From Rickettsiales bacterium (GTDB taxonomy: Bacteria > Pseudomonadota > Alphaproteobacteria > Rickettsiales > UBA1997), in the NCBI GenBank assembly GCA_031289855.1, contig JAITOR010000075.1, forward strand, positions 7,702 to 71,701: 64,000 bases of DNA, given 5' to 3'. Position 1 is the stretch's first letter. Each line of letters opens with the position of its first letter. The position numbers were made by a program, and so were the translations under genes. A model generated the notes under the pieces. That model searched no databases. It had not been told where the DNA came from and saw only the letters and a list, made by a program, of their open reading frames with translations. This document shows positions 3,210 through 61,645 of the stretch, one piece after another.

Positions 3210-3252
3210 TCAATTAAAAACACAATTAAAATAAAATTTATTTTTTTTTATA

Positions 3253-3284
3253 TACTTCCATACTTTACAGTTATGATATATAAT
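3253..3284 (+). promoter_or_regulatory. cassette copy A: TACTTCCAT-N17-TATAAT
   Basis: The sequence is tacTTCCATactttacagttatgataTATAAT. It is followed 6 nt later by an ATG at 3291. Confidence 0.45.
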
Positions 3285-3290
3285 ATAAAC

Positions 3291-3332
3291 ATGATTATAA
3301 TGTATATGTTGGATATGTGTTGCATATATTAA
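3291..3332 (+). other. candidate leaderless mini-ORF MIIMYMLDMCCIY
   Basis: The ATG lies 6 nt after the -10 of cassette copy A. It shares TATAATATAAACATG and the ATGTGTTG (Met-Cys-Cys) string with the luxS leader. Confidence 0.25.
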
Positions 3333-3363: not shown

Positions 3364-3398
3364 AATAAACAAAACCCTGTATTACTATAATACAAGGC
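3364..3398 (-). terminator. intrinsic terminator after the 340-aa gene
   Basis: The hairpin ccttgtatta/taatacagg (3376..3397, one bulge) is followed on the minus strand by gttttgtttatt. Confidence 0.55.
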
Positions 3399-3421
3399 TT
3401 TGTCAAATCACAAACAACTTC

Positions 3422-5868: not shown

Positions 5869-7032
5869 CTATTCACCACATTTTAACATAACAAAAGCAT
5901 CTTCCCTTATCACATCGCCTCCAACTCTTTTCGTGGCATAAAATTTAATGTATGGTTTCGCTGTATACGGATCTCGTAAAATTCTTATATCTTCCCTATC
6001 AACTATTTGATAATATTTGAAATTTCCAAATAATATCGCAGGAATACCAGTATTCAATGCCAACATATATGATGTTTGATACACTGGGGAACCAAGTATT
6101 GTATCGTCCTTACCTCCAAGCAAAGCAGGTTGCCACAAATAATTACCACTCACACTATCCTTCAACATCCTAACTTTTGAAACAGTTTCTCTTGTCATAA
6201 CAAAACTGGCACCACTTACATATTTTTGATTTAACGAATAATATAGGTTTATTACATTTTCTTGATTAAAATCAGTTGCGGAATTTGAGATTATTTCCTC
6301 TATTGGTCTTGTTAAAATACCAGTTGGTTGGTTGACACCATCGCCCCCACCATTCAAAAATGCTTCTTCCTCTCTTTGCAAAAATTGTTCAGCCAATCTA
6401 TCAGCAATGTAATTTTCAATGTTAATAAAGCCATCATCCAATAATTTTTGCGACACCTTTGGTTGAGCCACCAATTCTTGTGCTTTAATTGTTGTTTTTG
6501 ATATGGTGGAACCACTTGTTTCCATTCTATTTTCAATTTCTCCAACCCATGCAGCAGAAAAATTTACATCATCCACAATTTCTAATGCCGAAGAACCTAC
6601 ATTCTGTACAGAACAAATTCTTCTCATAAAGCAAGAATTCTCTAACTCTCCTGCTATAATTTTTGACATATTTGGACTCAATAAATATCCACCATAGGAA
6701 CCAGATATTGCAGTTGTTAAATCAAATTTCCTTTCTAGATTCATAAGTGGAGCATCTACACCTTTTTTGATGTAATTATCTAATGCGGTTTTATATTCCA
6801 CATTTTCTCTTGATTCACATTTGCTCTCAAAACTTGGTCTTGAATTTGATATTTCAAGTTTCTCAATCTTTAACTTTTGCTCTTCAAGAGTATTGTTTAT
6901 TTTTGACAATTCATCAAGCAATAATACATCAGCACCTCCCTTTTTCTCAATTTGTTTTAATCTTTCATCATTTACTTGTTTGTAATGCTCCCATGCATTA
7001 CCGATTTTCTCTAACTTGTCGTTAATTTCCAT
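5869..7032 (-). CDS. HK97-family phage/GTA major capsid protein (387 aa)
   Basis: An N-terminal coiled-coil delta/scaffold-like segment (MEINDKLEKIGNAWEHYKQVNDERLKQIEKKG...) is followed by a region of about 280 aa with the Phage_capsid (HK97) look. GGAG lies 5 nt upstream of the ATG. No neighbouring phage genes. Confidence 0.75.
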   Translation of the reverse strand: MEINDKLEKIGNAWEHYKQVNDERLKQIEKKGGADVLLLDELSKINNTLEEQKLKIEKLEISNSRPSFESKCESRENVEYKTALDNYIKKGVDAPLMNLERKFDLTTAISGSYGGYLLSPNMSKIIAGELENSCFMRRICSVQNVGSSALEIVDDVNFSAAWVGEIENRMETSGSTISKTTIKAQELVAQPKVSQKLLDDGFINIENYIADRLAEQFLQREEEAFLNGGGDGVNQPTGILTRPIEEIISNSATDFNQENVINLYYSLNQKYVSGASFVMTRETVSKVRMLKDSVSGNYLWQPALLGGKDDTILGSPVYQTSYMLALNTGIPAILFGNFKYYQIVDREDIRILRDPYTAKPYIKFYATKRVGGDVIREDAFVMLKCGE

Positions 7033-7066
7033 AAAGTCTCCATAAAATTAAAATTGTTACAAAAAT

Positions 7067-7098
7067 ATTATTACACATTATCACAAATGAGGGAAGTA
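7067..7098 (-). promoter_or_regulatory. cassette copy B (divergent, 3 nt shorter), upstream of the capsid gene
   Basis: The minus strand reads atacTTCCCTcatttgtgataatgtgTAATAAT. It lies about 35-65 nt upstream of the capsid ATG at 7032. Confidence 0.35.
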
Positions 7099-7123
7099 TA
7101 AAAAATAAATATTTTTTTACTAC

Positions 7124-7152
7124 TTGCAAAGTGACAAATTATTTTATATAAT
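7124..7152 (+). promoter_or_regulatory. sigma70-type promoter of ftsI (TTGCAA-N17-TATAAT)
   Basis: The spacer is exactly 17 nt. The ATG at 7159 lies only 6 nt after the -10, which is leaderless geometry. Confidence 0.55.
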
Positions 7153-7158
7153 ATAAAT

Positions 7159-8781
7159 ATGAAAAGATATTCAATTAACAAAACTGATTATACATATTCA
7201 AGAAATAGGTTATTTTTTCTTGTTTTATGCGTTATTTTTTTGCTCTTTGTGTATGTGGGGAGAATTTTTTATTTATCGTGTTTTTATAAAAAAAATAATA
7301 TGGAACAAGAATATATTTTTACAAATACAAATATTATATCAAGGGATGCAATTAGAGTTGATATAGTTGATAAAAATGATGTTATTTTGGCAACTAATAT
7401 TAAATTGTATGATTTTTATTTAAATAAAGATTTAATAACAAACAATGAATCTACAATTGATATTATAGTTAAAATTTTTCCATTTTTAAATAAAGAAACT
7501 TTGTTAAAAAAAATTACAAACCATAAATCAAAGTTAATTTTGATTAAAAATGGCATAACAGAAAGTCAAAAAAATGAAATCAAAAAAACTATTTTTGGCT
7601 TTGAATTTATGGAAAGTTTAGTAAGAATATACCCACATCAAGAATTGTTTTCCCATATAATAGGTTTTACAAATAGCGATAAACATGGAATTGAAGGCCT
7701 TGAATTACAATATAACGATTATCTTGACAATAAGGATAATCCACCATTAAAACTCACTTTTGATAGTAGGATACAAGCAATTTTAAGGAAGCAATTATTG
7801 AAAGGTATGGAAAAATATAAGGCAAAGTCAATAATTGGCATTGTGGCAGAAGTAAAAACTGGAAATGTTTTGGCATTAGTGAACTTGCCAGACTTTAATC
7901 CAAATCAATTAAATGATGTAAAAAGGGATGTTATGTATAATAAAGTGACCTTTGGAGCATTTGAAATGGGCTCTATATTTAAAATATTTACAATTGCTAT
8001 GGCACTTGATGGAAACATAATTACGGAAAATGAGCAATTTGATTCTTCAAGTAAAATTGATATTGGAAAATATATAATAAAACAGGATTATTATAGCAAA
8101 AAAATGATAAATGCAAAAGAAATTTTACAAAAATCTTCAAACATTGGTGCCGCTCTTATTGGTTTAAAAGGTGGTGCAGATAATATGAAGCAATTTTATA
8201 AAAAAATAGGATTTTTTGATAAATTGCCAGTAAAATATCCATCATTGGCAATGCCACTTTATCCAAGGACTTGGCGGAAATCAAACACTATTACAACATC
8301 ATATGGATATGGAATGGCAGTTAGTCCGTTGCATATAATTATGGGTGTAAGTGGAATTGTGAATGAAGGAATTATGAATATTCCAAAGTTTGTGACGAGT
8401 GAAAAATATGAAAAAGTTGAAATCATTAGTCAAAAAACTTCAAAAATAATGCAAAACTATTTAAGAGATGTAGTGCAAAATGGAACTGGATTTAGAGCAA
8501 ATACACTCGGTTATTCTGTTGGTGGAAAAACTGGTTCTGCAAGGCTGTTAGGTAGAGGTGGGGAATATTTGGAAGGACAAATTATGGCAAATTTTGTGGG
8601 AATTTTTCCCATGAATAATCCGCATTATGTGGTGTATGTGATGGTTGAAAATCCGCAAGATAATAATTACAAAAAAAACATTGATATTGCAGCAAGTAAT
8701 GTAACTGCTCCCATTGTGTCGAAAATTATTGAAAACATAGCACCAATCCTGAATGTTGTCCCATATATTGAGGGATTGTAA
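7159..8781 (+). CDS. ftsI: peptidoglycan D,D-transpeptidase (class B PBP, FtsI/PBP2-like)
   Basis: It has an N-terminal TM anchor and the transpeptidase motifs SIFK (SxxK), SSN (SxN) and KTGS (KTG). Confidence 0.85.
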   Translation: MKRYSINKTDYTYSRNRLFFLVLCVIFLLFVYVGRIFYLSCFYKKNNMEQEYIFTNTNIISRDAIRVDIVDKNDVILATNIKLYDFYLNKDLITNNESTIDIIVKIFPFLNKETLLKKITNHKSKLILIKNGITESQKNEIKKTIFGFEFMESLVRIYPHQELFSHIIGFTNSDKHGIEGLELQYNDYLDNKDNPPLKLTFDSRIQAILRKQLLKGMEKYKAKSIIGIVAEVKTGNVLALVNLPDFNPNQLNDVKRDVMYNKVTFGAFEMGSIFKIFTIAMALDGNIITENEQFDSSSKIDIGKYIIKQDYYSKKMINAKEILQKSSNIGAALIGLKGGADNMKQFYKKIGFFDKLPVKYPSLAMPLYPRTWRKSNTITTSYGYGMAVSPLHIIMGVSGIVNEGIMNIPKFVTSEKYEKVEIISQKTSKIMQNYLRDVVQNGTGFRANTLGYSVGGKTGSARLLGRGGEYLEGQIMANFVGIFPMNNPHYVVYVMVENPQDNNYKKNIDIAASNVTAPIVSKIIENIAPILNVVPYIEGL

Positions 8782-9769: not shown

Positions 9770-10030
9770 AAATAGAGTGATTCTTTAAAATGGTTCACTC
9801 AAGACCATTCTTGCAATAACAAAATCTCTATTGAGATTAACCCGAAGGTTATGCAGCTAAAGCAAGGTCTGAATTATCTTCAGCATTTATGTTTTGAACT
9901 ATTACGGTTGTATCTTGCCGGACAAAATCATATTTTTCGATGTATGTCTAAGCTAATCATCCCCTTAAAAATGGTGGAGATGCCGAGTTCCGCCCTCGGG
10001 TCCATATCATTTATTATATATAACGTTTAT
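9770..10030 (-). ncRNA. ssrA: two-piece (circularly permuted) tmRNA; outer boundaries approximate
   Basis: On the minus strand the acceptor piece ends ...GGACCCGAGGGCGGAACTCGGCATCTCCACCA, with its 3' end at 9972. Seven nt later the coding piece starts GGGGATGATTAGCTTAGAC at 9964. GGGGATG pairs with CATCTCC and includes the G3:U70 alanine identity pair. The tag frame ends GCT GAA GAT AAT TCA GAC CTT GCT TTA GCT GCA TAA (9884..9849), giving ...AEDNSDLALAA. Confidence 0.8.
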
Positions 10031-19599: not shown

Positions 19600-22500
19600 A
19601 TGTTTTTTAAAAAGTTTTTTTGTTCGTTATTATTGATTACCTTACTTGTCAGTTGCGAAGGTGCTAATTGCATTGATGCAAATGATTTTGGGGAGTTTGA
19701 CGTACATACAATGGCAATAGAATCACAAAAAACTTTATGTAAATGGGAAGAAACTGATACATCCGATGGAAACGGGGATTATGAAATTGAAAGATGTTTA
19801 AGAGATGCGAGTGGCGCAAGGAGTATTAGAAATCCAGATATAGATTGTACTATAACATTTAACGAGGGAACTTCTGGTTATGCAAAAGTAAAAGAAGCCT
19901 TAAAATCACAAAATATCACAAAAGGTTTTATGGAAAAATATTTTACTTTGAATAATGAAAGTCAGTGTGGAACGGATTATAAAAAATTATTGACCGCCTT
20001 TTATGCGGAAGGACTTGAGGACTGCATATCCACATGTGAAACAAAACATAAAGCATCAAATCCAGTGTCGGAAGATGTTTATGAACCTGAATGGAAGCCG
20101 GCAGATTTAATTTTAGAAGTTGGTAGAGAATTTTATATTAAAGCAACGGGTGAAATAGATTTGTTGGGAGAAAAGGAGCGAAGCGTTCAGTATCTTGCTG
20201 GTTCCATAAATATGAATAAAAAAACTACTATAAATACTATTTTTGCCATAAAAACTAATACTGATATGACGTTTTCTGGTAATTGGATTACAACAAAAAA
20301 CGGAGTTGTTGACAAAAATTATGGTGAGATTGATGGTAATCAACCAAATTTACAAAAAAGAATTGAATTTTTGAGAAGAGGTGTTATGTATTTACAACCA
20401 CTTCCCAGCGTTAAAATACAAGGTATGACCATAATTGGCGAAGTAAATGAGATAGGTTCTTATACCGGGCCAGATGTGGAATTAGATAAAACAAAAATTT
20501 CTTGTTTAGTGAATGAAAACTTACCTTATGATGGGTATCCTACCACTTGTAAAGTTGATTATGGAGTTGAAGAGTTACCTGATGATTTTTCTATAGCAGC
20601 ACTTACGGAATCTCAAAGAATAGCATTGGCAAATAATGAATTGTATAAGTTGGATCCTTTTATGTCAAAATCAAAGGCTGGATATGTATTGACGCCTGAC
20701 ATTATAGATTATATGACTAAAATGCCACTAAAAGGTTATAGTTGCGCAACAACATTTAATGCAAATTACGGAATTTATCGTAGAAATTGTGATGATGGAA
20801 AAATAGATAGAAGTATTGGATTTAATAATGGTTATTTAGTACCAAAAGCCTTTGTTTTTACAAATGAAACTCAGGGTGGAAATGATGATTATCAAATGGA
20901 TATAAATGGGTTGGTTTTTCCTGTAAAAATCATGGTAAGAGTTTATGGCGGAATAAGGGGAGAATGTAAAGTTGGTATAAAAATGCCAGCAGCATTAGGG
21001 GTAAACGATCTTGATCCTTCCAACGAAGTTGATGGATTTTACAAAGTTACTATTCCCGCTAATGATAAATGGCACTATATAAATGATATAAAAAACAAAC
21101 CAATAATATTTGGAAAAAATACATTTTTTACCATAAAAGAAACAACTGAAGGTAGAGTAAATGTAAGAAATGAAAATCAATATAATTTAGCTTTAAAAGT
21201 TGTGTCTCCAAGTTTTGATGAAGGTAATAGACCTCAGTGGACGGCTGCTCCTGGTGCTTCATTATATCCAAATACTTTTGTTGTGCCACCTATACCTTCA
21301 AAAGGCACGCCAAATGAAATTATTGACACAGAAAATCATCCAGCTCCTTGTGGCGAGGGTATGGTTGTTATGTTGATGCCACAAAATGAAATAGTGATAA
21401 AAGAAAGTGGATTTGTTTCAATCAAATCGTTTCTAAAAGACAAAATATATACTTGTAATGCCGCTGATGATGGAAGTGAAGTATTTTGTCAGGATGGTGC
21501 CAATGGTGGAGGTAATCCACCAATAAATAGAACATTTAATTTGAAATATACTATATTAAATCCAAATGTAAATGCATCCGCAACAACTTTTGCTGTTAAA
21601 TCTGAAAATTTTTATGAAAAATCAACCTCAGAAATTGTCGGCAGTTCAAATAAATATTATCCAAAGTTTAATGATTTAATGATACCAGTTTCAGCAATAG
21701 GTTCCGTGAGCACTACCACATGGAGTAGCAAATTTTTTGTTAGAAAAGGACAGGTCATTAGATTTGATGAAACCAGTTGGTTTGGCATTGAAGGATCCAA
21801 TGGAGATGGTTTTGAAGTAAAAGAAAAATTTTTAAAGTATGATAATTTTAATATCAAAAAAAACATAGGAGAAGGTTTAATAATGCATATTGAGAAAAGA
21901 CCATCTTTTTTATGCACAGGCGAAGCCGAAGAATCAATATTCAATTCATCTTGCCAAAAGATTAAAAAAGATGATGGAACTGTTGATTGCAGGGTTCCTT
22001 ATTCTCAATATTGTTCCACAATGAATTCACAGGCAGAAGTAGATAGATATTGTCCGCTCGGTTGTTATAAAGTGGAGGTTGGTGGCGGTGGAGAAGCAGA
22101 GCATAAAGTGGAAATAAATGAAGGATGGGGAATTGCTTTATTGAAAGGCGATAGTACAATCAAAAATCAATCATTTTATGTGGATAATAATGAGAAGGAA
22201 TCTAACAATTGCTCTTATCCTCCTGAGTCATTACCTGAAAGTTTTGAAGATCCAATGAGTGTACAAAAATGTATAGAATGTAGAAATTATATAGAAAGTA
22301 ATCCGGACGCTTCAATTGAATTGGTGAATAAGGTATCTTTAACTCAATGTTATGATTTAGAAAATTATACAGGAAGCATCAAGGTTTTAGAAAATAAAAA
22401 TCCCTTTATAAATAGTGAAACAGGAGAGGGTGATTATAATAAAAAGACATTTGATTTATTGGGTGTAAAAAAATTAAATAGTATATTTTCGCAAGATGCA

Positions 22501-25500
22501 AAATATGGAAACCTTGAAGGCTCATCCGTTGACTCTCAATATCAACAAAGCGATGGAACTTATACAAAGTTTATTTATAATTCACCAACTGAATTAAAAA
22601 CAGAAGAACCAAAAATAATTAAATTTTTAACTCTAAACATTGATGATAATTTGGATTTTTCTCCTTCATTTGCAGAGGATATTGGAAGATACAAAATTAC
22701 ACTTATGGAAGGTGATAAATTTATGAATGGAAAACAACTTTCTGTACTTATAGCTCACAAAGGTTGGGATAAAAAAAATTTTAGTCAACAATGTGAAACT
22801 GGTTTTTGTGTTAAACAATATGTTGTAAAATATGACACAAGTAAAGAAAGTGAAGGAGGTTTGGAACCTAATACAAATTATGGTAAAGAATTAAGCGATG
22901 TAAATGATTATGAATTTGATTCATTTGGAGATCTTGTAAGTAAAGCCAAAATAAGTGAAAAAAAACTCATTTTAACATCTATAAAAAATGGACTAACATC
23001 TTTTGATTTAGTTGAACCAAAAGAATATGAAGATTTAAGAATATATTTTAAAGTTATTGATAGATTGCAATACGCTCCAAAGGAAACATTTAATGATGAT
23101 TGTCCTTTAAATACCATAGCAGAATATGAAACACGTTATAGTTGTACAGGCGCAACATATGATGAATTAAAAACCATTACATGTGTTTCGACAATTAATA
23201 ATGTAAGTGAAACAATCAGTGCTTGCCCCATTAGTGCCACCGATACAGCCTGTTCAAAGACGAGTGCGGGTTCATATATTACACCACCATATAGCATTAA
23301 AGTAAAAGTTGGTTGTAATCATGGCTTATATTATAATAATAATGGTGGTTATTCAGTGAAAATACAATCTCCAAAAGTTTTCACAAGTTTAAATTCCGTA
23401 ACCGATATGGATAGCGCTATAAAAACCAATGTTTTGTCATGGGGGGTTACAAAAATTCAAGGTTTCACAATTAGAAGATTGCTAAATCCTTTTATGGAAG
23501 TTATGGAAGGAATAAATATGGGATTACTGAATTTTAGGGGAGGATTTGAACCTTGTGTGAAAGAAATTGGAGAAACTGTGTCTTCAAAATGCACCTATTA
23601 CAATCCAAAAACAGATATTTTCGATCCACAATTTGGTGCAGGTTGCACATACGATCAACCAAATTGCTTTATAACATGCAACCTAATAAATGAAAGCGAT
23701 CCAGGATATGCTGGTAAATGTAAAATTGTGAATGATAATGGTGGTTATATTAAAAACTTTTATTCAAGAGTTATATTGGATTCGCAATTTCATGCAGTAG
23801 TAAGAATTTTATTAACTTTAATGATGACATTTTTGGGTTTATATCATTTGATAGGTATGTCAGAAATAACAAGTAAAGAGATGCTTACAAGAATTACAAA
23901 GATTGGAATAATTTATTTATTTATAGGGGAAACTGGATGGTTTTATTACAATAGATTTATCGTTCAATTTTTTGTAAGAGGTGCCGATTATTTGTCTTAT
24001 GCAGTGGCAGGTGCATTTGAGGAGACTCCAGGACTTACAAGAGAATTCACAAAGGGAATCTTTCTTGATAAAACGGTATTATTTGGTGCCACCGATAGAA
24101 ATTTAGCATTAATATTTTCAGCTGAAGTAAATTACAAAATATTAGGTCTATTGTTTACAAGTTATCTCGGCTGGTTATATGTAATATTATTATATTCGGC
24201 TCTCATAAACTATGTTTTTGCCTCACTTAATGCTTTGGTTTTGTTTATGATGTCAAAATTTTTGCTGATGGTAATGTTGACATTTGGTCCAATATTCTTT
24301 GTGCTATTGATTTTTGAAAAAACAAAGACTGCATTTGACAAATGGGTAATGGCACTTGTGGGACATGTGGTGGAGCAAGTATCTTTAATGGTTGGATTAT
24401 CATTATTTAATATGTTGGTTTATAATTTTATAAAATTTGTATTGAATTTTAGAGTATGTTGGACCCAAGTGTGGATTGTTGAACTTCCATTATTAGGTAG
24501 TATAAAACTATTTAATTTTTGGAGAGCAACCACTGGTACCACAACCGTTACAACGGCAATGAATGCAATGCCAGGATTATTTAGAGTATTGATTATATAT
24601 ATCATTGCAGATTTAATGAAAGGATTTATAGAATTGGTGAGAAATTTTTCCAACGATATTGCAAAATCTGGTTTAAAATTAGGAGATAGGGTTGGTGGAA
24701 TTTTAGAAGAAGTTAACAGATATAAAGAGGGGGATGATGGTATAAAAGATTCTTTCACAAAAGGATTAAATGCCAAAAGAGATTCATTCTTTAAGAAGAT
24801 GGGATACCAGACAGAAGAAGAGGAAATGAAAGAACAAAGTGATGAAAAGAAAAATAATATAAAAATAAGACAGGGTGAAAATGCTGGAAAAGAGGCAAGA
24901 AATGATCTTGCCGCAAAGGCACATATAGAATCAACAAAAAAGGCAAAAGAATCTGCTGAAAAATTTGTAAATAATAAAGGAGATGCTGCTAAAAATAAAC
25001 ATCTTGAAGAAAAAGGTCAAGAGGCAAGAGAAGTGGCTGAAAATGCATTTAAATCTAAAAAAAATAACAAAAAATTGTCTCCAGAGGAACTTGAAAAAGG
25101 AGCAAGAGAAGAGGGAGATAAGGCCGAAAAAGAAGCAAAAGAAAATGCAGACAATATTAAGGAAGCAGAAAGTAAGGCAACAGAAGCAAAAGAGAAAGCA
25201 CAAAAAGATGTGACAGGTATAAAAGCAGCCGAAAAAGAAGCATATAAATCTTCATATAACGAAATGGCGAGCACAGAAAAACTTGATGAAGCTTACAAAA
25301 ATGCATTTACAGCAAAAGCCGGGGCGGATAATTGGGGCAAAGAGGCAAGCACAAAAGCTGATAGTGTATTTGGTTTCATTGCATCAAAGGCATGGCATGC
25401 CGCAAGAGATGGCAAAGCAAGCACAAAAGCTGATAGTAGCACAATAGATAAACAAAATGAGATGACAAAAGTTGTTAAAAAAGCAAAGGATAAGGACGAT

Positions 25501-26343
25501 AAAAAGGAATTTGATAAAAAACATGATGAAAAATTAAAAGAGGAAGGTCATGGATTTTTAGCAAGAAGATGGGCCATGAGAAAAAATGCTCTTACGGGTG
25601 GTAGAAAACATAGTGGAGTTGGTATAACGCCATTAGGAAAAACCACAAGTAATTATAGAGATGCAGCGCTTAAGGAACAAAATGAAAAGAAAAATAAAGA
25701 TAAAGAAATGCTTGAATACAGAAATGAAATAGCACAAGAATCAAGACAAAAGAAAATTGAATCTGACAGAGAACTTGAGAACCACAAAAAAACAGGGGAA
25801 TATAAAGAAGATTTAAGGGATGAAACAAATAAATTACAAAAAGAATGGATGAAGGAAAATAGTTTTACTTCGTATGATAAATTTATAAAAAATGGAACTG
25901 TTGAACAGAAAAAAGCATATGGAAAACTTGGAGAAAAGGCAAAAAAGAATGTTGAAAGTAAATATCTAAAAAAGAGAGCAGAGGCGAAAGCTGCTGAAGA
26001 AAAAGATGCATCTGCAACAGCATCAGAAGAGGCAACACCAAAAAAAACGGAAACAGAAGAGGCAACACTAAAATCAGAGGAGGAGGCAACATCAAAAAAA
26101 ACGGAAACAGAAGAGGCAACACCACCTGAAGCAGAAACAGGTGCTGAAGCCAATGATGCAACACAACCAGAGATACCGGAAGTTCCATCGGAAGTACTTC
26201 CTCAGCCTTTAGAGGGGGAGGCTATACCACCACCTAAAACGGAAATATCAGCAAAAAGAAGAAAAAAGGCATCACATCGCGGAAGAGCAACAATTCCGGA
26301 TGGTTCACCTGAACCAATGGATGAACCGGAGGAAACTGAATGA
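19600..26343 (+). CDS. giant (2,247 aa) lipoprotein with a VirB6/TrbL-like polytopic membrane core
   Basis: The lipobox is LLVSC, with Cys at aa 19. A Cys-rich soluble region of about 1,375 aa follows. A cluster of hydrophobic helices spans about aa 1396-1672 and contains TFGPIFFVLLIFEKTKTAFDKWVMALVGHVV. That segment parallels the VirB6 segment AIGPLILVGYIFDRTRDIAAKWIGQLITYGL of A. tumefaciens as I recall it. A K/E/A-rich low-complexity tail of about 575 aa carries short tandem repeats. Confidence 0.6.
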   Translation: MFFKKFFCSLLLITLLVSCEGANCIDANDFGEFDVHTMAIESQKTLCKWEETDTSDGNGDYEIERCLRDASGARSIRNPDIDCTITFNEGTSGYAKVKEALKSQNITKGFMEKYFTLNNESQCGTDYKKLLTAFYAEGLEDCISTCETKHKASNPVSEDVYEPEWKPADLILEVGREFYIKATGEIDLLGEKERSVQYLAGSINMNKKTTINTIFAIKTNTDMTFSGNWITTKNGVVDKNYGEIDGNQPNLQKRIEFLRRGVMYLQPLPSVKIQGMTIIGEVNEIGSYTGPDVELDKTKISCLVNENLPYDGYPTTCKVDYGVEELPDDFSIAALTESQRIALANNELYKLDPFMSKSKAGYVLTPDIIDYMTKMPLKGYSCATTFNANYGIYRRNCDDGKIDRSIGFNNGYLVPKAFVFTNETQGGNDDYQMDINGLVFPVKIMVRVYGGIRGECKVGIKMPAALGVNDLDPSNEVDGFYKVTIPANDKWHYINDIKNKPIIFGKNTFFTIKETTEGRVNVRNENQYNLALKVVSPSFDEGNRPQWTAAPGASLYPNTFVVPPIPSKGTPNEIIDTENHPAPCGEGMVVMLMPQNEIVIKESGFVSIKSFLKDKIYTCNAADDGSEVFCQDGANGGGNPPINRTFNLKYTILNPNVNASATTFAVKSENFYEKSTSEIVGSSNKYYPKFNDLMIPVSAIGSVSTTTWSSKFFVRKGQVIRFDETSWFGIEGSNGDGFEVKEKFLKYDNFNIKKNIGEGLIMHIEKRPSFLCTGEAEESIFNSSCQKIKKDDGTVDCRVPYSQYCSTMNSQAEVDRYCPLGCYKVEVGGGGEAEHKVEINEGWGIALLKGDSTIKNQSFYVDNNEKESNNCSYPPESLPESFEDPMSVQKCIECRNYIESNPDASIELVNKVSLTQCYDLENYTGSIKVLENKNPFINSETGEGDYNKKTFDLLGVKKLNSIFSQDAKYGNLEGSSVDSQYQQSDGTYTKFIYNSPTELKTEEPKIIKFLTLNIDDNLDFSPSFAEDIGRYKITLMEGDKFMNGKQLSVLIAHKGWDKKNFSQQCETGFCVKQYVVKYDTSKESEGGLEPNTNYGKELSDVNDYEFDSFGDLVSKAKISEKKLILTSIKNGLTSFDLVEPKEYEDLRIYFKVIDRLQYAPKETFNDDCPLNTIAEYETRYSCTGATYDELKTITCVSTINNVSETISACPISATDTACSKTSAGSYITPPYSIKVKVGCNHGLYYNNNGGYSVKIQSPKVFTSLNSVTDMDSAIKTNVLSWGVTKIQGFTIRRLLNPFMEVMEGINMGLLNFRGGFEPCVKEIGETVSSKCTYYNPKTDIFDPQFGAGCTYDQPNCFITCNLINESDPGYAGKCKIVNDNGGYIKNFYSRVILDSQFHAVVRILLTLMMTFLGLYHLIGMSEITSKEMLTRITKIGIIYLFIGETGWFYYNRFIVQFFVRGADYLSYAVAGAFEETPGLTREFTKGIFLDKTVLFGATDRNLALIFSAEVNYKILGLLFTSYLGWLYVILLYSALINYVFASLNALVLFMMSKFLLMVMLTFGPIFFVLLIFEKTKTAFDKWVMALVGHVVEQVSLMVGLSLFNMLVYNFIKFVLNFRVCWTQVWIVELPLLGSIKLFNFWRATTGTTTVTTAMNAMPGLFRVLIIYIIADLMKGFIELVRNFSNDIAKSGLKLGDRVGGILEEVNRYKEGDDGIKDSFTKGLNAKRDSFFKKMGYQTEEEEMKEQSDEKKNNIKIRQGENAGKEARNDLAAKAHIESTKKAKESAEKFVNNKGDAAKNKHLEEKGQEAREVAENAFKSKKNNKKLSPEELEKGAREEGDKAEKEAKENADNIKEAESKATEAKEKAQKDVTGIKAAEKEAYKSSYNEMASTEKLDEAYKNAFTAKAGADNWGKEASTKADSVFGFIASKAWHAARDGKASTKADSSTIDKQNEMTKVVKKAKDKDDKKEFDKKHDEKLKEEGHGFLARRWAMRKNALTGGRKHSGVGITPLGKTTSNYRDAALKEQNEKKNKDKEMLEYRNEIAQESRQKKIESDRELENHKKTGEYKEDLRDETNKLQKEWMKENSFTSYDKFIKNGTVEQKKAYGKLGEKAKKNVESKYLKKRAEAKAAEEKDASATASEEATPKKTETEEATLKSEEEATSKKTETEEATPPEAETGAEANDATQPEIPEVPSEVLPQPLEGEAIPPPKTEISAKRRKKASHRGRATIPDGSPEPMDEPEETE
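26026..26121 (+). repeat. intragenic imperfect tandem repeats (EEAT modules) in the tail of the giant gene
   Basis: GAAGAGGCAACA or GAGGAGGCAACA occurs at 26026, 26056, 26080 and 26110. AAAAAAAACGGAAACAGAAGAGGCAACA occurs twice. Confidence 0.8.
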
Positions 26344-29369: not shown

Positions 29370-29798
29370 ATGAAAAATGCTACAATAGAGGATTGCTTAA
29401 AGTTAATCCCAAACAAGTTTGAATTAATACTTGAAACAAGTTACAGAGCTAAAACTCTTATCAATGGTTTTTCCCCATTATATGAAACTGACAAACTAAG
29501 CAATGTAGTTATTTCATTGAATGAAATTGGAAATAATTTATTAGATGTGGTGGAATTAAAAAAGATAACTGAAAATGATATTAAAAACAAAGAAAAGTTC
29601 TTTGATAACGAAAAAAACACAGAAGAAGTTGAAATTGTAAATGTTAAAAAAATAGAAAATGTTGATGGCGAAGAATTGAGTGTTGATGGGCAAGCAGATG
29701 AAATTGATATTGAAATAGATGAAGAAGAGGAAGATGACGAGATTAATTTAGGGCTTGATAACGTTGAAGATGAAATTGATGATGATGAAGAAAAATAA
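29370..29798 (+). CDS. rpoZ: DNA-directed RNA polymerase subunit omega with a long acidic C-terminal extension
   Basis: The N-terminus TIEDCLKLIPNKFELILETSYRAKTL matches the RpoZ core. The C-terminal 50 or so residues are mostly D/E. Confidence 0.8.
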   Translation: MKNATIEDCLKLIPNKFELILETSYRAKTLINGFSPLYETDKLSNVVISLNEIGNNLLDVVELKKITENDIKNKEKFFDNEKNTEEVEIVNVKKIENVDGEELSVDGQADEIDIEIDEEEEDDEINLGLDNVEDEIDDDEEK

Positions 29799-37944: not shown

Positions 37945-38919
37945 TTACAATATTAATAGTTTTCTTGATATACTTTTTATTCTTTTATCTTCACTTTTTC
38001 TTAATAAAAAATATCCCGTCAATCTTTCGGCAATCATACCAATATCTCTAAATTTTCTACTATCTTTTGGTAATTTTTCCTCTAATTTAAATAATATAGG
38101 AAATATCCAATTGGAATATTCAAAAAATAATTCTCTCTTCATTATAAATATATTATTAAAATAAATTTTGTCACCCTCAAAAAATTTTTTCACATCTTGA
38201 TATTGTGATGGGTATTTATCTTTAATAAAAGTCATGGTTTCATTAAAAATATCTATACTAACCGCTTTGTTATATGGCATCATGTATTGAAAGTAAACGC
38301 TTAAAACGTTTCTTAACTGTGTTGTTACTAAATCCATACCCTCCATAACATCTTCTATTGCTCTGTATTCCAGCAGTTTTCCATAATGATAAACTCCAAT
38401 ATATTCCGGATTTCCAATTTTATCATAGTTTTTCCATGCCCAATAAATACCAGTCATCTCATTCCAATATCTATTGTAGCGAGAAACATTGTCACCAGTA
38501 TCATCACCTATCATGTTATCATTCAACCATTTATGGGGGTGGAGCAGAGTTTTTTTATAGTGCTCTTTGAAATCAGTTGCTATTTCTTCACCTACCTTGG
38601 CAATACTTCTACCACAATGTATTGGAAGTATTACTTTGTTTTGCCAAAGTGTATAAGGTTTGTGATAACAGGCAATAATTTTGATGTTATATCTTGTTTT
38701 ATCATCTGGATTATCATATCTGTATTTTTTTATTTCAATTGGTTTTTTTAAATTAATTTGCTCCTCAAGTTGAGCCAATATTGTTCTATCAAATGTACAA
38801 TGTGAATAAAATTTTTTTAAATTAACTGCCAATTGTTCTATCAAATATACATATGAATGAAATGAAATTAAAATAAATGATATGACGATAATATTTGAAT
38901 AATATTTATTTTTTAACAT
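37945..38919 (-). CDS. DUF4422-domain putative glycosyltransferase, paralog 1
   Basis: An N-terminal TM anchor is followed by IKIIACYHKP...LPIHCGR...GDDTGDNVS...YWAWKNY...IGVYHYGK and FIMKRELFFEYSNWIFPILF. This is the DUF4422 pattern (DNTGDNIS...YWxWKN...HYRR). It is clearly homologous to 50606..51604. Confidence 0.65.
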   Translation of the reverse strand: MLKNKYYSNIIVISFILISFHSYVYLIEQLAVNLKKFYSHCTFDRTILAQLEEQINLKKPIEIKKYRYDNPDDKTRYNIKIIACYHKPYTLWQNKVILPIHCGRSIAKVGEEIATDFKEHYKKTLLHPHKWLNDNMIGDDTGDNVSRYNRYWNEMTGIYWAWKNYDKIGNPEYIGVYHYGKLLEYRAIEDVMEGMDLVTTQLRNVLSVYFQYMMPYNKAVSIDIFNETMTFIKDKYPSQYQDVKKFFEGDKIYFNNIFIMKRELFFEYSNWIFPILFKLEEKLPKDSRKFRDIGMIAERLTGYFLLRKSEDKRIKSISRKLLIL

Positions 38920-38972: not shown

Positions 38973-38987
38973 TCATGTCTTTTTCAT
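38973..38987 (-). other. mini-uORF ATG AAA AAG ACA TGA (MKKT) in the leader of DUF4422 paralog 1
   Basis: AGGAA precedes it. A homologous mini-ORF is present in the copy E leader. Confidence 0.3.
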
Positions 38988-39021
38988 AATTATATTCCTA
39001 TATTTTGTTAATATTATTTAT

Positions 39022-39053
39022 ATTATACATCATAAGTGTAAAGTGCGGAAGTA
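39022..39053 (-). promoter_or_regulatory. cassette copy C, upstream of DUF4422 paralog 1
   Basis: The minus strand reads tacTTCCGCactttacacttatgatgTATAAT. The predicted leader to ATG 38919 is about 96 nt. Confidence 0.5.
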
Positions 39054-39090
39054 TATAAATAAAAAATATTATAAAATTATTTTTCAAAAG

Positions 39091-39122
39091 TACTTCCATA
39101 CTTAAAATAAATAAGTTATACT
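39091..39122 (+). promoter_or_regulatory. cassette copy C-prime, divergent partner facing kpsF
   Basis: The sequence is tacTTCCATacttaaaataaataagtTATACT. It is in inverted orientation to copy C, 37 nt away, and lies about 90 nt upstream of kpsF. Confidence 0.4.
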
Positions 39123-39213
39123 CAAAATAACAATTACCAAAAAATTGCTAAAATTGAATATAATTTTTTGCTTTTTTATTTATTAATATTATTGTATCAG
39201 TTAGGGAGATTTT

Positions 39214-41496: not shown

Positions 41497-41499
41497 TTA

Positions 41500-41871
41500 T
41501 TTACTTCAACATTTCTATGTACTTCGCCAATCCTTTTTTCACCTATATCTCCATTCTTTCTCTTTTTCGTTTACTTCATCCTGATTATTTCCATTTTTGC
41601 ATAATCTATCTACGTTGGATATAACTATTTTATCTTCTTTTTTTGTTGTTCGTTCTATTAATTCTGAAAAAACCACTTTTTGATAAAATAAAGTATTGAC
41701 AATTTCTCATAAGTTCCAATTCGAAATATAGTTCACTATCATTATTCATATCAAAATAATTAAATGAATATTTATATTTGATATATCTTTTACAAGATTT
41801 TGTAATATATTATTATTCAATCTTGCCTTCACTAAATTCATAGAACTTGAAAAGATAAATGTAATATTCAT
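41500..41871 (-). pseudogene. degraded ORF downstream of cassette copy D
   Basis: On the minus strand, an ATG at 41871 opens a 41-codon ORF (MNITFIFSSSMNLVKARLNNNILQNLVKDISNINIHLIILI). The reading then continues in two other frames (MNNDSELYFELELMRNCQYFILSKSGFFRINRTNNKKRR, then KKEDKIVISNVDRLCKNGNNQDEVNEKEKEWRYR). One frame break lies at a poly-A run. Ancestral identity unknown. Confidence 0.3.
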
Positions 41872-41875
41872 TTAT

Positions 41876-41907
41876 ATTATACATCATAAGTGTAAAGTAC
41901 GGAAGTA
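41876..41907 (-). promoter_or_regulatory. cassette copy D, upstream of the degraded ORF
   Basis: The minus strand reads tacTTCCGTactttacacttatgatgTATAAT. It is nearly identical to copy C over more than 44 nt. Confidence 0.45.
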
Positions 41908-41985
41908 CATAAAGAAAATAAATATTAATTATTATAATTGTTTTTTGTTTTTATTTCAAATTTACACGTTATATATTAATTATAT

Positions 41986-42063
41986 TTCACAATATAAATT
42001 CACAATATAGATTCACAATACAAATTTACAATACAAATCCACAACGCATCTTCACAATCTATT
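41986..42063. repeat. tandem array, 6 x 13 bp, core TTCACAATA
   Basis: Units start at 41986, 41999, 42012, 42025, 42038 and 42051. The cores read ttcacaata, ttcacaata, ttcacaata, tttacaata, tccacaacg and ttcacaatc. Confidence 0.8.
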
Positions 42064-50507: not shown

Positions 50508-50533
50508 AGAGAGAGAGAGAGAGAGAGAGAGAG
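50508..50533. repeat. (AG)13 dinucleotide microsatellite
   Basis: There are 26 nt of perfect AG alternation. A C6 run precedes it and a polypyrimidine tract (50544..50579) follows. Confidence 0.95.
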
Positions 50534-50605: not shown

Positions 50606-51604
50606 ATGAATAAAATATTGCTCAATTTATGTTCCATTTTTATAATAAAAAAGAAAAAAAGAGAGTATTTTAAAATAAGATACAAAAATAAAACTTTATT
50701 AAGTTGTTTTTGTCCAAAAAAAATTTCGAACATGATTGATAAAATAAATAGAATAGACAATATTGACACAAATAATAGATATAATCGTATAAACATACAA
50801 ACCAATAGGGATTATTCCATAGAAGGTTGGAAATATGATAATCCATTGGATAAAACGAAATATGATATAAAAATTATCATTACTTATCACAGACCAGCAT
50901 TTTTGTTTCAACATAAAGTTTTGCTTCCTATACATGGTGGTAGGGATATAAAAGACAATAATATTATAAAAAGTGGTGCTGGAGAATTTATAAAAAGCGA
51001 ACAATCGATAAAATGGCTGCAAGATAATATGATTGGTGATAACACGGGAGACAATATTTCTTATATGAATAAAAATATAAGCATTGAGTCATCCTTGTAT
51101 TGGGTTTGGAAACATTATGATGAGATTGGAAATCCAGCCTATATTGGTAATTTTCATTTTAGGAAATTATTTCCATTTAGTGCCTTACATGATTATGCAA
51201 TTTATGATTTAATCTTGCCTATTAAAAGACAAACTGGAAAAGGATGTGATCTTTTAAATGAAATAAATGAAATCACAATGAATATTATAAAAAAACACTC
51301 ACCAGAATTAGTTGAAGAGATAAGAAAATGGTATTTAAAAGAAGCGAAAGACATTTATTATGATGAGATGTATATAATGACAAAAAAATTGTTTTTTGAA
51401 TATTGTGAATGGATTTTTCCAATTATATTTGATTTATACGAAGTTACAACAAAACAAAAAATACAAATTTGCTCTTGGGATATCAAAGGAGATGTGAGGC
51501 AAGTCGCTTGGGTTGTTGAAAGATTGACGGGCTGGTGGTTGTGGAAAAAAACACAAGATAAAAATATCAAATACAAAGAAATGCCCATAGTTATTATTGA
51601 ATAG
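50606..51604 (+). CDS. DUF4422-domain putative glycosyltransferase, paralog 2
   Basis: IKIIITYHRP...LPIHGGR...GDNTGDNIS...YWVWKHY...IGNFHFRK and YIMTKKLFFEYCEWIFPIIF show homology to 37945..38919. Confidence 0.65.
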   Translation: MNKILLNLCSIFIIKKKKREYFKIRYKNKTLLSCFCPKKISNMIDKINRIDNIDTNNRYNRINIQTNRDYSIEGWKYDNPLDKTKYDIKIIITYHRPAFLFQHKVLLPIHGGRDIKDNNIIKSGAGEFIKSEQSIKWLQDNMIGDNTGDNISYMNKNISIESSLYWVWKHYDEIGNPAYIGNFHFRKLFPFSALHDYAIYDLILPIKRQTGKGCDLLNEINEITMNIIKKHSPELVEEIRKWYLKEAKDIYYDEMYIMTKKLFFEYCEWIFPIIFDLYEVTTKQKIQICSWDIKGDVRQVAWVVERLTGWWLWKKTQDKNIKYKEMPIVIIE

Positions 51605-59351: not shown

Positions 59352-60527
59352 TTATTTTTTAAAATATTTCTTTATTGTTTCAGCCAATGCTTCCACTATC
59401 TTATCTCTGTAACTTGCACTCCTTATCATCCTTTCTTCATTATTATTTGAAATAAATCCAATTTCCAACAAAATTGATGCCGTATTCGCCCCAGTTAAAA
59501 CAGCAAAATTTGCAAATTTTCTCATATTGCTACTTAAACTTCTTACATTTCGTTTTTTAAGTTCCTGTTCCAAATATCCAGCAAATTTTTTTGAATCATT
59601 CATTGCCTTTACTCTTGATAAATCAACAAGTGTATTTATTGTGTCCTGATATTCACCATATAAATCTGCACCACTTATAATATCAGATTTATTTTCTTTT
59701 TGGGCTAATTGTGCCGTTCTTGTGTCACTTGCTGTTTGTGATAAAGTATAAATCGAAAGCCCTTTTGCATTCCTGTTTGTCGTAGCATCGGCATGTATAG
59801 AAATGAACAAATCTCCTTTTCTTTTTCTTGCAAATGCAATTCTATCCATCAATTCGATGTAAGTATCGTTATTTCTTGTTAAATACACGCTATAAAGTCC
59901 AGTTTTATCCAAAATTTCCTTCAAGGATTTTGCATAGATTAGGGTAAGAATTTTTTCTTTTGTCCCCCTTTGGCCTTGAGCCCCTGGGTCTTTCCCACCA
60001 TGTCCCGCATCTATTATGATTACGGGTTTTGTTTTGGGAATTGAGGTAAGTTTGCTTTCCTTTTTCGTTTTTGTTTTTTTTGGCTCTTCTATCCTTTTTG
60101 TATTCAAATCGTCTATTAAGGTTTCTATTTTATCTTTTTTTTCCTCCTTTTCAAATTCTAAATCTATAACTATCCTATGATATTTATTATTTTTATCTGG
60201 TTTTAAATAAAAATCTTTAATACTTTTCGGTTTTATGTTTAGGTCAAACACAATCCTTGAATCCGTATTTGAAAATTTTCCAATCCTCAAAGAATCAACG
60301 ACTTCATTTGATGCAAATGATGGAGCTTTGACATTATAGTTTTCTGTACTTTGCAAATCAATTACCAATCTATCAGGATTTTTCAATAAAAATGGATTGT
60401 AATTTATTTTCGTGCTATTGTCTATCACAATCCTTTCGGTGTATTTTCCTGTATTTAATCTAATATTTGATACAATATTTGCATACAATGTATTTACACA
60501 CAATAAAAGTAAAATTATTTTTCGCAT
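59352..60527 (-). CDS. amiC: N-acetylmuramoyl-L-alanine amidase (AMIN + Amidase_3, AmiC-like)
   Basis: A signal peptide and an AMIN-like N-domain precede the catalytic motifs IIIDAGHGGKDPGA and ISIHADA. The ATG overlaps the upstream stop as TAATG. Confidence 0.85.
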   Translation of the reverse strand: MRKIILLLLCVNTLYANIVSNIRLNTGKYTERIVIDNSTKINYNPFLLKNPDRLVIDLQSTENYNVKAPSFASNEVVDSLRIGKFSNTDSRIVFDLNIKPKSIKDFYLKPDKNNKYHRIVIDLEFEKEEKKDKIETLIDDLNTKRIEEPKKTKTKKESKLTSIPKTKPVIIIDAGHGGKDPGAQGQRGTKEKILTLIYAKSLKEILDKTGLYSVYLTRNNDTYIELMDRIAFARKRKGDLFISIHADATTNRNAKGLSIYTLSQTASDTRTAQLAQKENKSDIISGADLYGEYQDTINTLVDLSRVKAMNDSKKFAGYLEQELKKRNVRSLSSNMRKFANFAVLTGANTASILLEIGFISNNNEERMIRSASYRDKIVEALAETIKKYFKK

Positions 60528-61381
60528 TATTTTTTTGCTGATTTAAATTTATTGACAGCGGCCTTTCCCAACTGATCACTCTCTGCTTTTTGTTTTTCTT
60601 CTTTTTCCGCTATTTGTTCTCTTTCCAAGGATTGTAGTTTTACAAAAATATAGGCCAAATAAATATACATTATATCCCAAATACATAGTTTGATGAAAAA
60701 AGTAGCCTGTATTCCAAATTTAAAGTTAAATTTTATAATCGCAAGCCCCACCAATTCTTCCACACCAAAAACGACTAATGTTGTTATAATTAATGAAAAC
60801 ATAAGTTTTAACAAATTTCCCTTTGTAAGATTTCTGCTTCTATCGAGTGCTTTAATGCCCACTGGAATATATATATCGCCAGTTTTACTTGTGGCAATTT
60901 TATTATTCAAGTCTCCCACAGCACTCAAAAATATACCAAAAATATACCAAAAGGCGAACAAAATTCCGGGTATTATCCCCAACACAAATAATAATAAAAT
61001 TAATATATAATAGGTAATTAAGGTTCCAAAAACACTAAAAAATCTAGTGCAACTTAATGTTAAAAGTTCCATAATGTCATTTTTGGTCCCTTTTCTCATA
61101 ATCGTAATTGTATTGCCATATAAAATGACTTTAAAAGTTGTCAAAATCGTCAATAGTAACCCGTAATATGAGATGTAAAATAAAATACTAAAGCCAAAAT
61201 AATTATACAAAAATGTTCTATATTTAATTTGTAAAAATGGCCTATAGTAAAAAAACATTGCCACACCATTCGCAAAAAGAATATAAAAAATATGCTTTAA
61301 ATAATATCTTAACGACTTAACAACATTACTTAAATATAATGATTTCATTTTAAGTTCGTAAGATGGAGATCCCTTTGCCAT
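60527..61381 (-). CDS. hypothetical polytopic membrane protein (284 aa) with a K/E-rich C-terminal tail
   Basis: There are five or six hydrophobic segments. Cassette copy E and its leader precede the gene. Confidence 0.55.
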   Translation of the reverse strand: MAKGSPSYELKMKSLYLSNVVKSLRYYLKHIFYILFANGVAMFFYYRPFLQIKYRTFLYNYFGFSILFYISYYGLLLTILTTFKVILYGNTITIMRKGTKNDIMELLTLSCTRFFSVFGTLITYYILILLLFVLGIIPGILFAFWYIFGIFLSAVGDLNNKIATSKTGDIYIPVGIKALDRSRNLTKGNLLKLMFSLIITTLVVFGVEELVGLAIIKFNFKFGIQATFFIKLCIWDIMYIYLAYIFVKLQSLEREQIAEKEEKQKAESDQLGKAAVNKFKSAKK

Positions 61382-61443: not shown

Positions 61444-61458
61444 TTATGTTTTTTTCAA
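61444..61458 (-). other. mini-uORF TTG AAA AAA ACA TAA (MKKT) in the leader of the 284-aa membrane protein gene
   Basis: AGGAGG lies 5 nt upstream of the TTG. Confidence 0.3.
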
Positions 61459-61490
61459 ATCGTCCTCCTAATTTTATTAATGTTATTTGT

Positions 61491-61522
61491 ATTATATATC
61501 ATAAAAGCAAATCATGGAAGTA
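61491..61522 (-). promoter_or_regulatory. cassette copy E, upstream of the 284-aa membrane protein
   Basis: The minus strand reads tacTTCCATgatttgcttttatgataTATAAT. The leader to ATG 61381 is about 105 nt and is homologous to the copy C leader. Confidence 0.5.
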
Positions 61523-61645
61523 TTTTTTGAAAATAAATTTTTAATTGTTTTAAAATTACGAAATGGTCAAATCGTGAAGCGTTTATTAATGAGTTAAGGT
61601 ATCAATATTGTTGTGGGAAAACTCTCTATTTCTTTCATCGTTATT

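Follow-up and report, generated by a model that had tools for sequence, protein, structure and literature searches.

A recurrent TACTTCC box in the place of the −35 hexamer of promoter-like modules in a Rickettsiales bacterium, and its conservation upstream of RcGTA-type capsid genes

Phage T4 middle promoters and PhoB pho-box promoters combine a σ70 −10 hexamer with a protein-read box at about −30 to −40, which is the MotA box, (a/t)(a/t)(a/t)TGCTTtA, in the former and 7-nt direct repeats with an 11-bp period in the latter. Consensus pairs described for other σ factors are GGAAC-N16-17-CGTT (ECF/EcfG), CTTGAA-N13-17-CCCCATNT (RpoH), TGGCAC-N5-TTGC (σ54) and TAAA-N15-GCCGATAA (σ28), and the UP-element consensus is reportedly AAAWWTWTTTT. 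By our comparison, the closest published functional analogue of the elements described here is GTA control in Caulobacter, where GafY assists RNA polymerase at GTA promoters whose −35 is degenerate, and where a promoter given a consensus −35 instead no longer depends on its activator (PMC11150451). In Rhodobacter, GafA binds near the −10/−35 of RcGTA promoters and has its contact point in the omega subunit of RNA polymerase (PMC9638019). Reports of GafA homologues concern Rhodobacterales and Hyphomicrobiales and no Rickettsiales-like lineage, and neither GafA nor GafY has a published consensus that could be set against TACTTCC.

We analysed a stretch of 64,000 nt (hereafter, the window) from contig JAITOR010000075.1 of a Rickettsiales bacterium (GCA_031289855.1), which has a G+C content of 29%, is 11% intergenic, carries an alphaproteobacterial two-piece tmRNA and a tuf-tRNA-Trp-nusG-rplK-rplA block in the usual arrangement, and encodes proteins only 50–70% identical to those of the nearest relatives. 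Directly after rplA, where rplJ-rplL-rpoB would normally be expected, lies an ORF of 2247 aa (19600-26343, +) with internal repeats (30- and 24-nt periodic units at 25996-26140). RNA polymerase omega (29370-29798, +; 142 aa) has its Rpb6 domain in residues 8–59 only, beyond which comes a long tail that is very acidic (DEIDIEIDEEEEDDE...).

The promoter-like modules found in this window, which are built around a TACTTCC heptamer, resemble the GafA and GafYZ promoters, from which structural and auxiliary RcGTA-type genes are expressed, in the RcGTA-type genes that they would drive, in their σ70-type −10 and in their degenerate −35. They differ in that the GafY element was mapped, with IHF, at −123 to −113 (PMC11150451), whereas the box described here is at −38 to −32; this is the only block conserved across lineages and sequences further upstream are unalignable, so that a far-upstream activator site has no counterpart here. 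Moreover, GTA genes occur here as scattered single units with their own boxes, unlike the one long operon with anti-termination of the Gaf systems, and no homologue of GafA (DUF6456), GafY or GafZ was found in the window or in the loci fetched from relatives. To MotA and PhoB promoters the resemblance would be one of working principle, not of membership, the box sequences being unrelated to TACTTCC and neither factor being expected in this lineage. The TACTTCC box is a clade-specific element of a familiar kind.

The TACTTCC module and its copies in the window

The occurrence of the TACTTCC box is real and clearly non-random. A search for TACTTCC-N19-TATAAT with at most one mismatch yielded seven matches in the window, all intergenic, against 0.23 expected, and none of 100 shuffled windows reached seven. 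The heptamer alone occurs 15 times, six of them intergenic, and these six are precisely the sites of a preliminary description of the window, which had reported a six-copy cassette of 45–60 bp; all six coordinates were recovered by the search, together with a seventh match at 7121-7152 (+). A profile built from five good copies (A, B, C, E, F) recovered these same copies, by construction, with E values from 1e-10 to 4e-14, and elsewhere in the window it matched only the upstream half of the site at 39091 (+), copy D, at model positions 9–38 and with E = 0.1; the site at 7121 (+), site G, was not recovered. Five members of the six-copy cassette stand as full modules, the sixth, D, only as a half-copy, and we take the ~65-nt module to be present in five full copies (3253+, 7067−, 39022−, 41876− and 61491−), besides which there are one half-copy (39091+) and one look-alike (7121+) (Table 1).

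Table 1. Copies of the TACTTCC module, associated features and ordinary promoters of the window.
Feature	Coordinates	Strand	Details
Copy A, full module	3228..3296	+	box 3253-3259; −10 TATAAT 3279-3284
RcGTA-type major capsid gene (HK97-fold), solitary	5869..7032	−	target of the box across lineages
Copy B, most divergent	7053..7123	−	box 7092-7098; −10 AATAAT 7067-7072
Site G, canonical relative of the module	7101..7162	+	TAC-TTGCAA 7124-7129, N17, TATAAT 7147-7152
Mini-ORF, leader of copy C	38973..38987	−	ATG AAA AAG ACA TGA (MKKT-stop); AGGA Shine-Dalgarno
Copy C	39010..39083	−	box 39047-39053; −10 39022-39027
Copy D, half-copy	39056..39123	+	box 39091-39097; −10-like TATACT 39117-39122
Copy E	41864..41932	−	box 41901-41907; −10 41876-41881
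Mini-ORF, leader of copy F	61444..61458	−	TTG AAA AAA ACA TAA (MKKT-stop); AGGAGG Shine-Dalgarno
Copy F	61479..61547	−	box 61516-61522; −10 61491-61496
Ordinary promoter, luxS side			TTGACA-N18-TATAAT
Ordinary promoter, tRNA-Gly/tuf			TTGACA-N16-TATTAT
Ordinary promoter			TTGACT-N16-TACAAT
Ordinary promoter			TTGACT-N17-TATCAT
Ordinary promoter			TTGACT-N17-TAGAAT
Ordinary promoter, twice (one is site G)			TTGCAA-N17-TATAAT
Ordinary promoter			TTGACA-N17-TATTAT

A full copy consists of an A/T-rich tract at about −60 to −40, often AAATTTATTTT, the TACTTCC heptamer at about −38 to −32 and hence in the place of the −35 hexamer, a 19-nt spacer, TATAAT (AATAAT in B) and, usually, ATAAATA. This anatomy (A/T-rich UP-like tract, box at the −35 place, consensus −10) supports the promoter-like nature proposed in the preliminary description. 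The hexamer at the −35 position proper is TTCC[A/G/C][T/C], from which 17 nt lead to a −10 that reads TATAAT in A, C, E and F, AATAAT in B and TATACT in D, the −10 of D having previously been given as TATAAT. Among the five full copies the box is 100% and the −10 83–100% identical. Spacer identity is 79–95% among A, C and E, 58–74% to F and 37–53% to B, with 34% for random sequence. The conserved spacer, ACTTTACA[C/G]TTATGAT[G/A], exists as had been described, except that it belongs to A (3253), C (39022) and E (41876) and not to A, C and D; likewise, the near-identical pair is not 39022/39091 but 39022/41876 (88% over 59 nt; 95% in the spacer). The extent of 45–60 bp is to be corrected: similarity spans about −30 to +6 in every one of the five copies and reaches about +50 for 39022/61491, C and F being 85% identical in the leader (+1 to +20), unlike the others.

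Kinship among the copies is mosaic, C resembling E in the spacer and F in the leader. From these alignments, a single module seems to have been copied recently, and somewhat mosaically, to give A, C, E and F, and B looks like an old member in which the box and the −10 alone have been retained. That these two blocks are kept while the spacer of B drifts amounts to a block pattern of constraint. Because spacer likeness is confined to the copies of this genome and unconserved in relatives, it reflects recent duplication of the module, and the earlier argument from spacer conservation to an additional factor is not supported, since that conservation concerns A, C and E (partly F) only.

Four assignments made earlier, to a capsid gene, a DUF4422 gene, a degraded ORF and a gene for a 284-aa protein, hold. 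Copy B precedes the ATG of the RcGTA-type capsid gene by 35 nt, copy C is 103 nt upstream of DUF4422 glycosyltransferase paralogue 1 (37945-38919, −), and copy F 110 nt upstream of the gene for a 284-aa multi-pass membrane protein (60527-61381), which is followed by an AMIN/Amidase_3 amidase gene (59352-60527). Copy E is followed only by frame-shifted ORF fragments (41497-41850, −), which were rejected as a DUF4422 paralogue on comparison; one of them, SELYFELELMRNCQYFILSKSGFF, resembles the C-terminal motif of family-11 fucosyltransferases, and the fragments are probably a decayed glycosyltransferase gene. Copy A lies between convergent genes and has no intact gene downstream, only a 13-codon ORF and a hairpin at ~3375-3400. 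The idea that copy A transcribes an sRNA was discarded, the fold downstream being unremarkable (z = −1.28) and an Rfam match being absent. Neighbouring proteins of unknown function (340, 428, 133 and 387 aa) gave no similarity to solved GTA structural proteins, PHROGs or NCBIfam.

A single back-to-back arrangement had been reported, between DUF4422 paralogue 1 and kpsF; it holds for C and D, whose boxes are 44 bp apart, and there is a second at 7067(−)/7121(+), where B and G stand back to back between the capsid and penicillin-binding protein (PBP) genes. Copy D faces the kpsF-SPOR operon (39214 onward) and has only the A/T tract and TACTTCCATACTT (box plus ATACTT) in common with the family. 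At site G, the ATG of the PBP gene (7159) is only 6 nt past the TATAAT (window 7147-7161, +), and a PBP transcript from this site may be leaderless. The leaders of C and F contain homologous mini-ORFs that encode the same MKKT-stop with different start and stop codons and that could encode a leader peptide or be relics.

Two further intergenic features were noted. Tandem 13-nt repeats (unit TTCACAATACAAA, 4.5–5.6 copies) at 41986-42058, which are part of an intergenic region of 752 nt, at 80–150 nt upstream of copy E, and whose core on the other strand, TTGTGAA/TTGTGGA, resembles the DnaA box complement, could be an iteron, regulator-binding or origin-like array. A perfect (AG)13 after a C run (50508-50533), in the 173 nt that precede DUF4422 paralogue 2 (50606-51604), looks like a contingency promoter that would make this glycosyltransferase phase-variable.

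Canonical promoters and other sigma factors

Scanning of other upstream regions in the window for −35/−10 pairs identified TTGACA/TTGACT/TTGCAA-N16-18-TAnnnT promoters at eight other units (Table 1), whose −35 hexamers match TTGACA at 5–6 of six positions, compared to two of six for TTCC[A/G/C][T/C] in all copies of the module. The use of TTGACA-type hexamers by these units indicates that the housekeeping σ reads a normal −35, which sets TACTTCC apart, and the TACTTCC sites are evidently, judged by their hexamers, a promoter class distinct from the canonical promoters of the window. It also upholds the earlier view of TTCCNN as a poor σ70 −35, since the other units use TTGACA, TTGACT or TTGCAA. 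With canonical σ70 promoters bearing an UP element the module has in common a TATAAT −10 at 17 nt after TTCCNN, within the usual 16–18 nt, and an UP-like tract, AAATTTATTTT, which we take to fit the UP-element consensus; it differs in its −35 and in that another heptamer is invariant. Site G, which is 71% identical to copy A, departs from the box in a single base (TACTTGC) that creates TTGCAA, and can be viewed as the natural equivalent of the consensus −35 swap in Caulobacter.

A second σ70-family protein might use TACTTCC or ACTTCC as its −35 and share a TATAAT-like −10, with no separate activator. The distance from the box to the −10-like hexamer is indeed fixed, at 18–20 nt, in all 12 sites, and the invariant box marks a class distinct from the window's canonical promoters. 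However, the −10s are indistinguishable from the σ70 consensus, although most alternative σ factors have their own −10, and a σ gene is absent from the window; we consider such a σ factor unlikely. To our knowledge, the box matches no RpoH, ECF/EcfG, σ28 or σ54 consensus, and on inspection of the aligned sites the corresponding pairs were not found.

Two other assignments were rejected. On the opposite strand, GGAAGTA taken as an ECF-like −35 is not followed by a G/C-containing −10, and in each of the five lineages it would face away from the capsid gene. As for CtrA-regulated promoters, TTAA-N7-TTAA(C) with at most one mismatch had no positionally consistent match in the 12 sites.

Capsid loci and other sites in related lineages

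The capsid protein encoded downstream of copy B has RcGTA Rcc01687 as its best PDB match (E = 1.4e-55; next match, 9e-25), and many orthologues at 51–67% identity are present in related gut and termite-gut MAGs. Capsid loci were fetched from four lineages, L023 (GCA_036245235.1), L024, L026 and L028, with amino-acid identities of 67%, 63%, 61% and 51% respectively; L022, at 100%, is the same strain and no independent lineage. An exact TACTTCC in sense orientation was found upstream of the capsid orthologue in all four, 58–133 nt from the start codon and followed after 18–20 nt by −10-like hexamers (TATGAT, TACAAA, TATAAA and AATAAT), so that, with the window, box and −10-like hexamer precede capsid gene g5 in five of five lineages. 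Nothing beyond box and −10 in these upstream regions was alignable by MAFFT, the gene neighbourhood of the capsid differs in every lineage, and at the local base composition a 200-nt upstream region would contain the heptamer by chance with a probability of ~0.011 per lineage. Retention of the exact heptamer amid unalignable flanks argues for a bound factor. Two points of the preliminary description are thereby strengthened at the level of sequence: the additional bound factor, which the heptamer before the capsid in four lineages supports, and the conservation in related genomes that it had proposed to look for, which is present in each of the four lineages fetched.

The capsid gene is solitary in the window, L023, L024 and L026 (10001 onward), with no portal, protease or terminase nearby, and the protein stays 61–67% identical in these three relatives despite their differing neighbourhoods. 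A few other GTA-type genes remain beside the capsid gene only in L028, which is more distant, with gaps of 170–390 nt between them.

Further sites in relatives are TACTTCC-N20-TATAAT upstream of a DUF2460 gene in L028, the homologue of RcGTA g12, whose product matches Rcc01695, the distal tail protein of RcGTA (E = 1.1e-44), and TACTTCC-N19-TAATAT before an 85-aa gene in L021. The −10-like hexamers of the relatives score 4–6 of six against TATAAT, those of L024 (TACAAA) and L026 (TATAAA) being without the usually invariant final T. A match of at least five of six at 18–20 nt downstream occurs at four of the relatives' six sites, compared to a frequency of 0.085 at random intergenic positions of the same loci (binomial probability ~7e-4, own calculation). 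RcGTA-type genes downstream of the box are thus g5 in five lineages and the g12 homologue of L028, and the other copies in the window precede genes unrecognised as GTA genes. The box is absent from the 284-aa/amidase operon in L149 and from kpsF in L008, L020 and L021, and the 284-aa/amidase operon of L150 has only a variant, TTCTTCC, with other spacing. Judged by these orthologues, conservation of the box across lineages is found at structural genes of the RcGTA type and not at envelope genes. The surface or accessory regulon first envisaged is narrowed accordingly: its cross-lineage targets are RcGTA g5 (five of five) and g12 (one lineage), and the envelope targets are unconserved.

In L150, the region upstream of the 284-aa/amidase operon orthologue (~9880-9915) reads TTCTTCCATAC...TATGATATAGT and has TTCCATAC and TATGATATAG in common with the L023 capsid promoter and with copy F, at a different spacing. 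A PadR gene is divergent to this element.

Wider searches gave little. Scans of genome and metagenome contig collections for TACTTCC-N4-TTT-N4-TWATG-N3-WATAAT returned single matches only, mostly in unrelated taxa; six of 11 metagenome-contig matches are one locus, on contigs probably of a relative with a 57%-identical KpsF. Matches in viral contigs were also single, no phage contig among the matches listed having several copies. Rfam covariance models had no match at the gathering score for the module region, a permissive search giving only a chance SAM-II match (18.5 bits against a gathering score of 44), and a full-text literature search for TACTTCC yielded nothing relevant.

These data bear on two alternatives. 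The modules could be ordinary constitutive σ70 promoters in which an UP-like tract and a perfect −10 offset a weak −35, the heptamer persisting by descent or copying: A, C, E and F do derive from one another (spacer identity of 58–95%) and site G has the same build with a canonical −35. Yet descent fails to explain an exact heptamer before capsid genes whose products are 51–67% identical, with randomised spacers and flanks and differing neighbourhoods, given the low chance expectation per lineage, and we find this explanation quite improbable. Alternatively, the module could be a selfish or neutral dispersed repeat of the MITE or REP kind that looks like a promoter through its AT-richness, as its presence in several copies in one genome, the lack of an intact gene downstream of A and E and the mosaic relations between copies might suggest; Neisseria Correia and Rickettsia palindromic elements are also short, multi-copy and intergenic, and some supply promoters. 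Unlike these elements, the module is without inverted termini or a palindrome and is not inserted into genes, its copies being all intergenic and devoid of inverted arms or a palindromic fold. It lacks an Rfam match, is not repeated in any phage contig among the matches listed, and across lineages has only its functional blocks, box and −10, conserved, at orthologous genes and always in sense orientation. That it is such a repeat would be extremely surprising. A role at the RNA level, such as anti-Shine-Dalgarno pairing, is unlikely, as the box stands anywhere from 58 to 133 nt before the start codon but at a fixed distance from the −10.

A factor-dependent promoter as a proposed mechanism

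The motif, its excess, its intergenic place and orientation, its distinctness and its cross-lineage conservation with fixed −10 spacing are direct observations. A consensus −10, a fixed distance to the box, an invariant heptamer and free variation elsewhere are what is expected of a factor-dependent promoter with its factor at the −35. We therefore favour, with moderate confidence, the reading that these are σ70-type promoters in which the −35 would be replaced by the site of a putative activator or σ-region-4-like factor. RNA polymerase with the housekeeping σ would read the −10, and the alpha subunits would probably contact the A/T tract. As TTCCNN is unfit as a −35, recognition of the TACTTCC box would fall to a dedicated DNA-binding factor, for which an activator or a σ-region-4-like protein touching polymerase at the −35 position is the likeliest candidate, and the promoters would fire only with this factor present. 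We thus infer that transcription starts at these sites, that a trans-acting factor occupies the box and that this factor activates. No candidate for the regulator was found in the window.

The same conservation would fit an operator overlapping the −35, at which a repressor silences GTA-type and other costly genes until induction, and GTA genes are tightly repressed in model species, by RogA in Caulobacter (PMC11150451). Operators are, however, usually palindromic, whereas the box occurs in single copies without a dyad partner and forms inverted pairs only where two divergent promoters meet; moreover, a promoter with TTCCNN as −35 and no activator would be weak and would hardly need repression. 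A repressor operator is, to us, very improbable.

Counted against a factor acting at the box are the two of five full copies (A and E) that have no intact downstream gene, the lack of conservation at envelope targets (L149, L150 and kpsF in relatives) and the absence of the final T from the −10-like hexamers of L024 and L026. A consensus −10 and an UP-like tract might also be enough for activity without any factor.

On this reading the box is old and would mark a small co-regulated set with RcGTA-type capsid g5 and distal tail g12 as its conserved core, the RcGTA-type genes of the clade being scattered as single-gene units. In this genome the module appears to have been copied recently (A, C, E, F), so that it now precedes genes for envelope and polysaccharide functions as well as a pseudogene, and one copy stands at an empty site. 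A tentative extension, which we regard as possible yet doubtful, is that these are the remains of a broken-up RcGTA cluster and that TACTTCC is the site of a putative master activator, a counterpart of GafA or GafYZ, acting also on envelope, lysis-like (membrane protein and amidase) and polysaccharide genes. In that event the box would pick out an entire GTA regulon, in a lineage for which GTA production is not known.

Should the box be an ordinary promoter variant, its value would be limited to annotation. Hardly any promoter classes are known from uncultured, AT-rich gut bacteria of the Rickettsiales-like kind, and an invariant 7-nt box at a fixed spacing allows the co-regulated genes to be listed simply from MAGs of the clade. 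It makes testable whether GTAs are assembled from dispersed genes in these bacteria, and how such assembly would be controlled.
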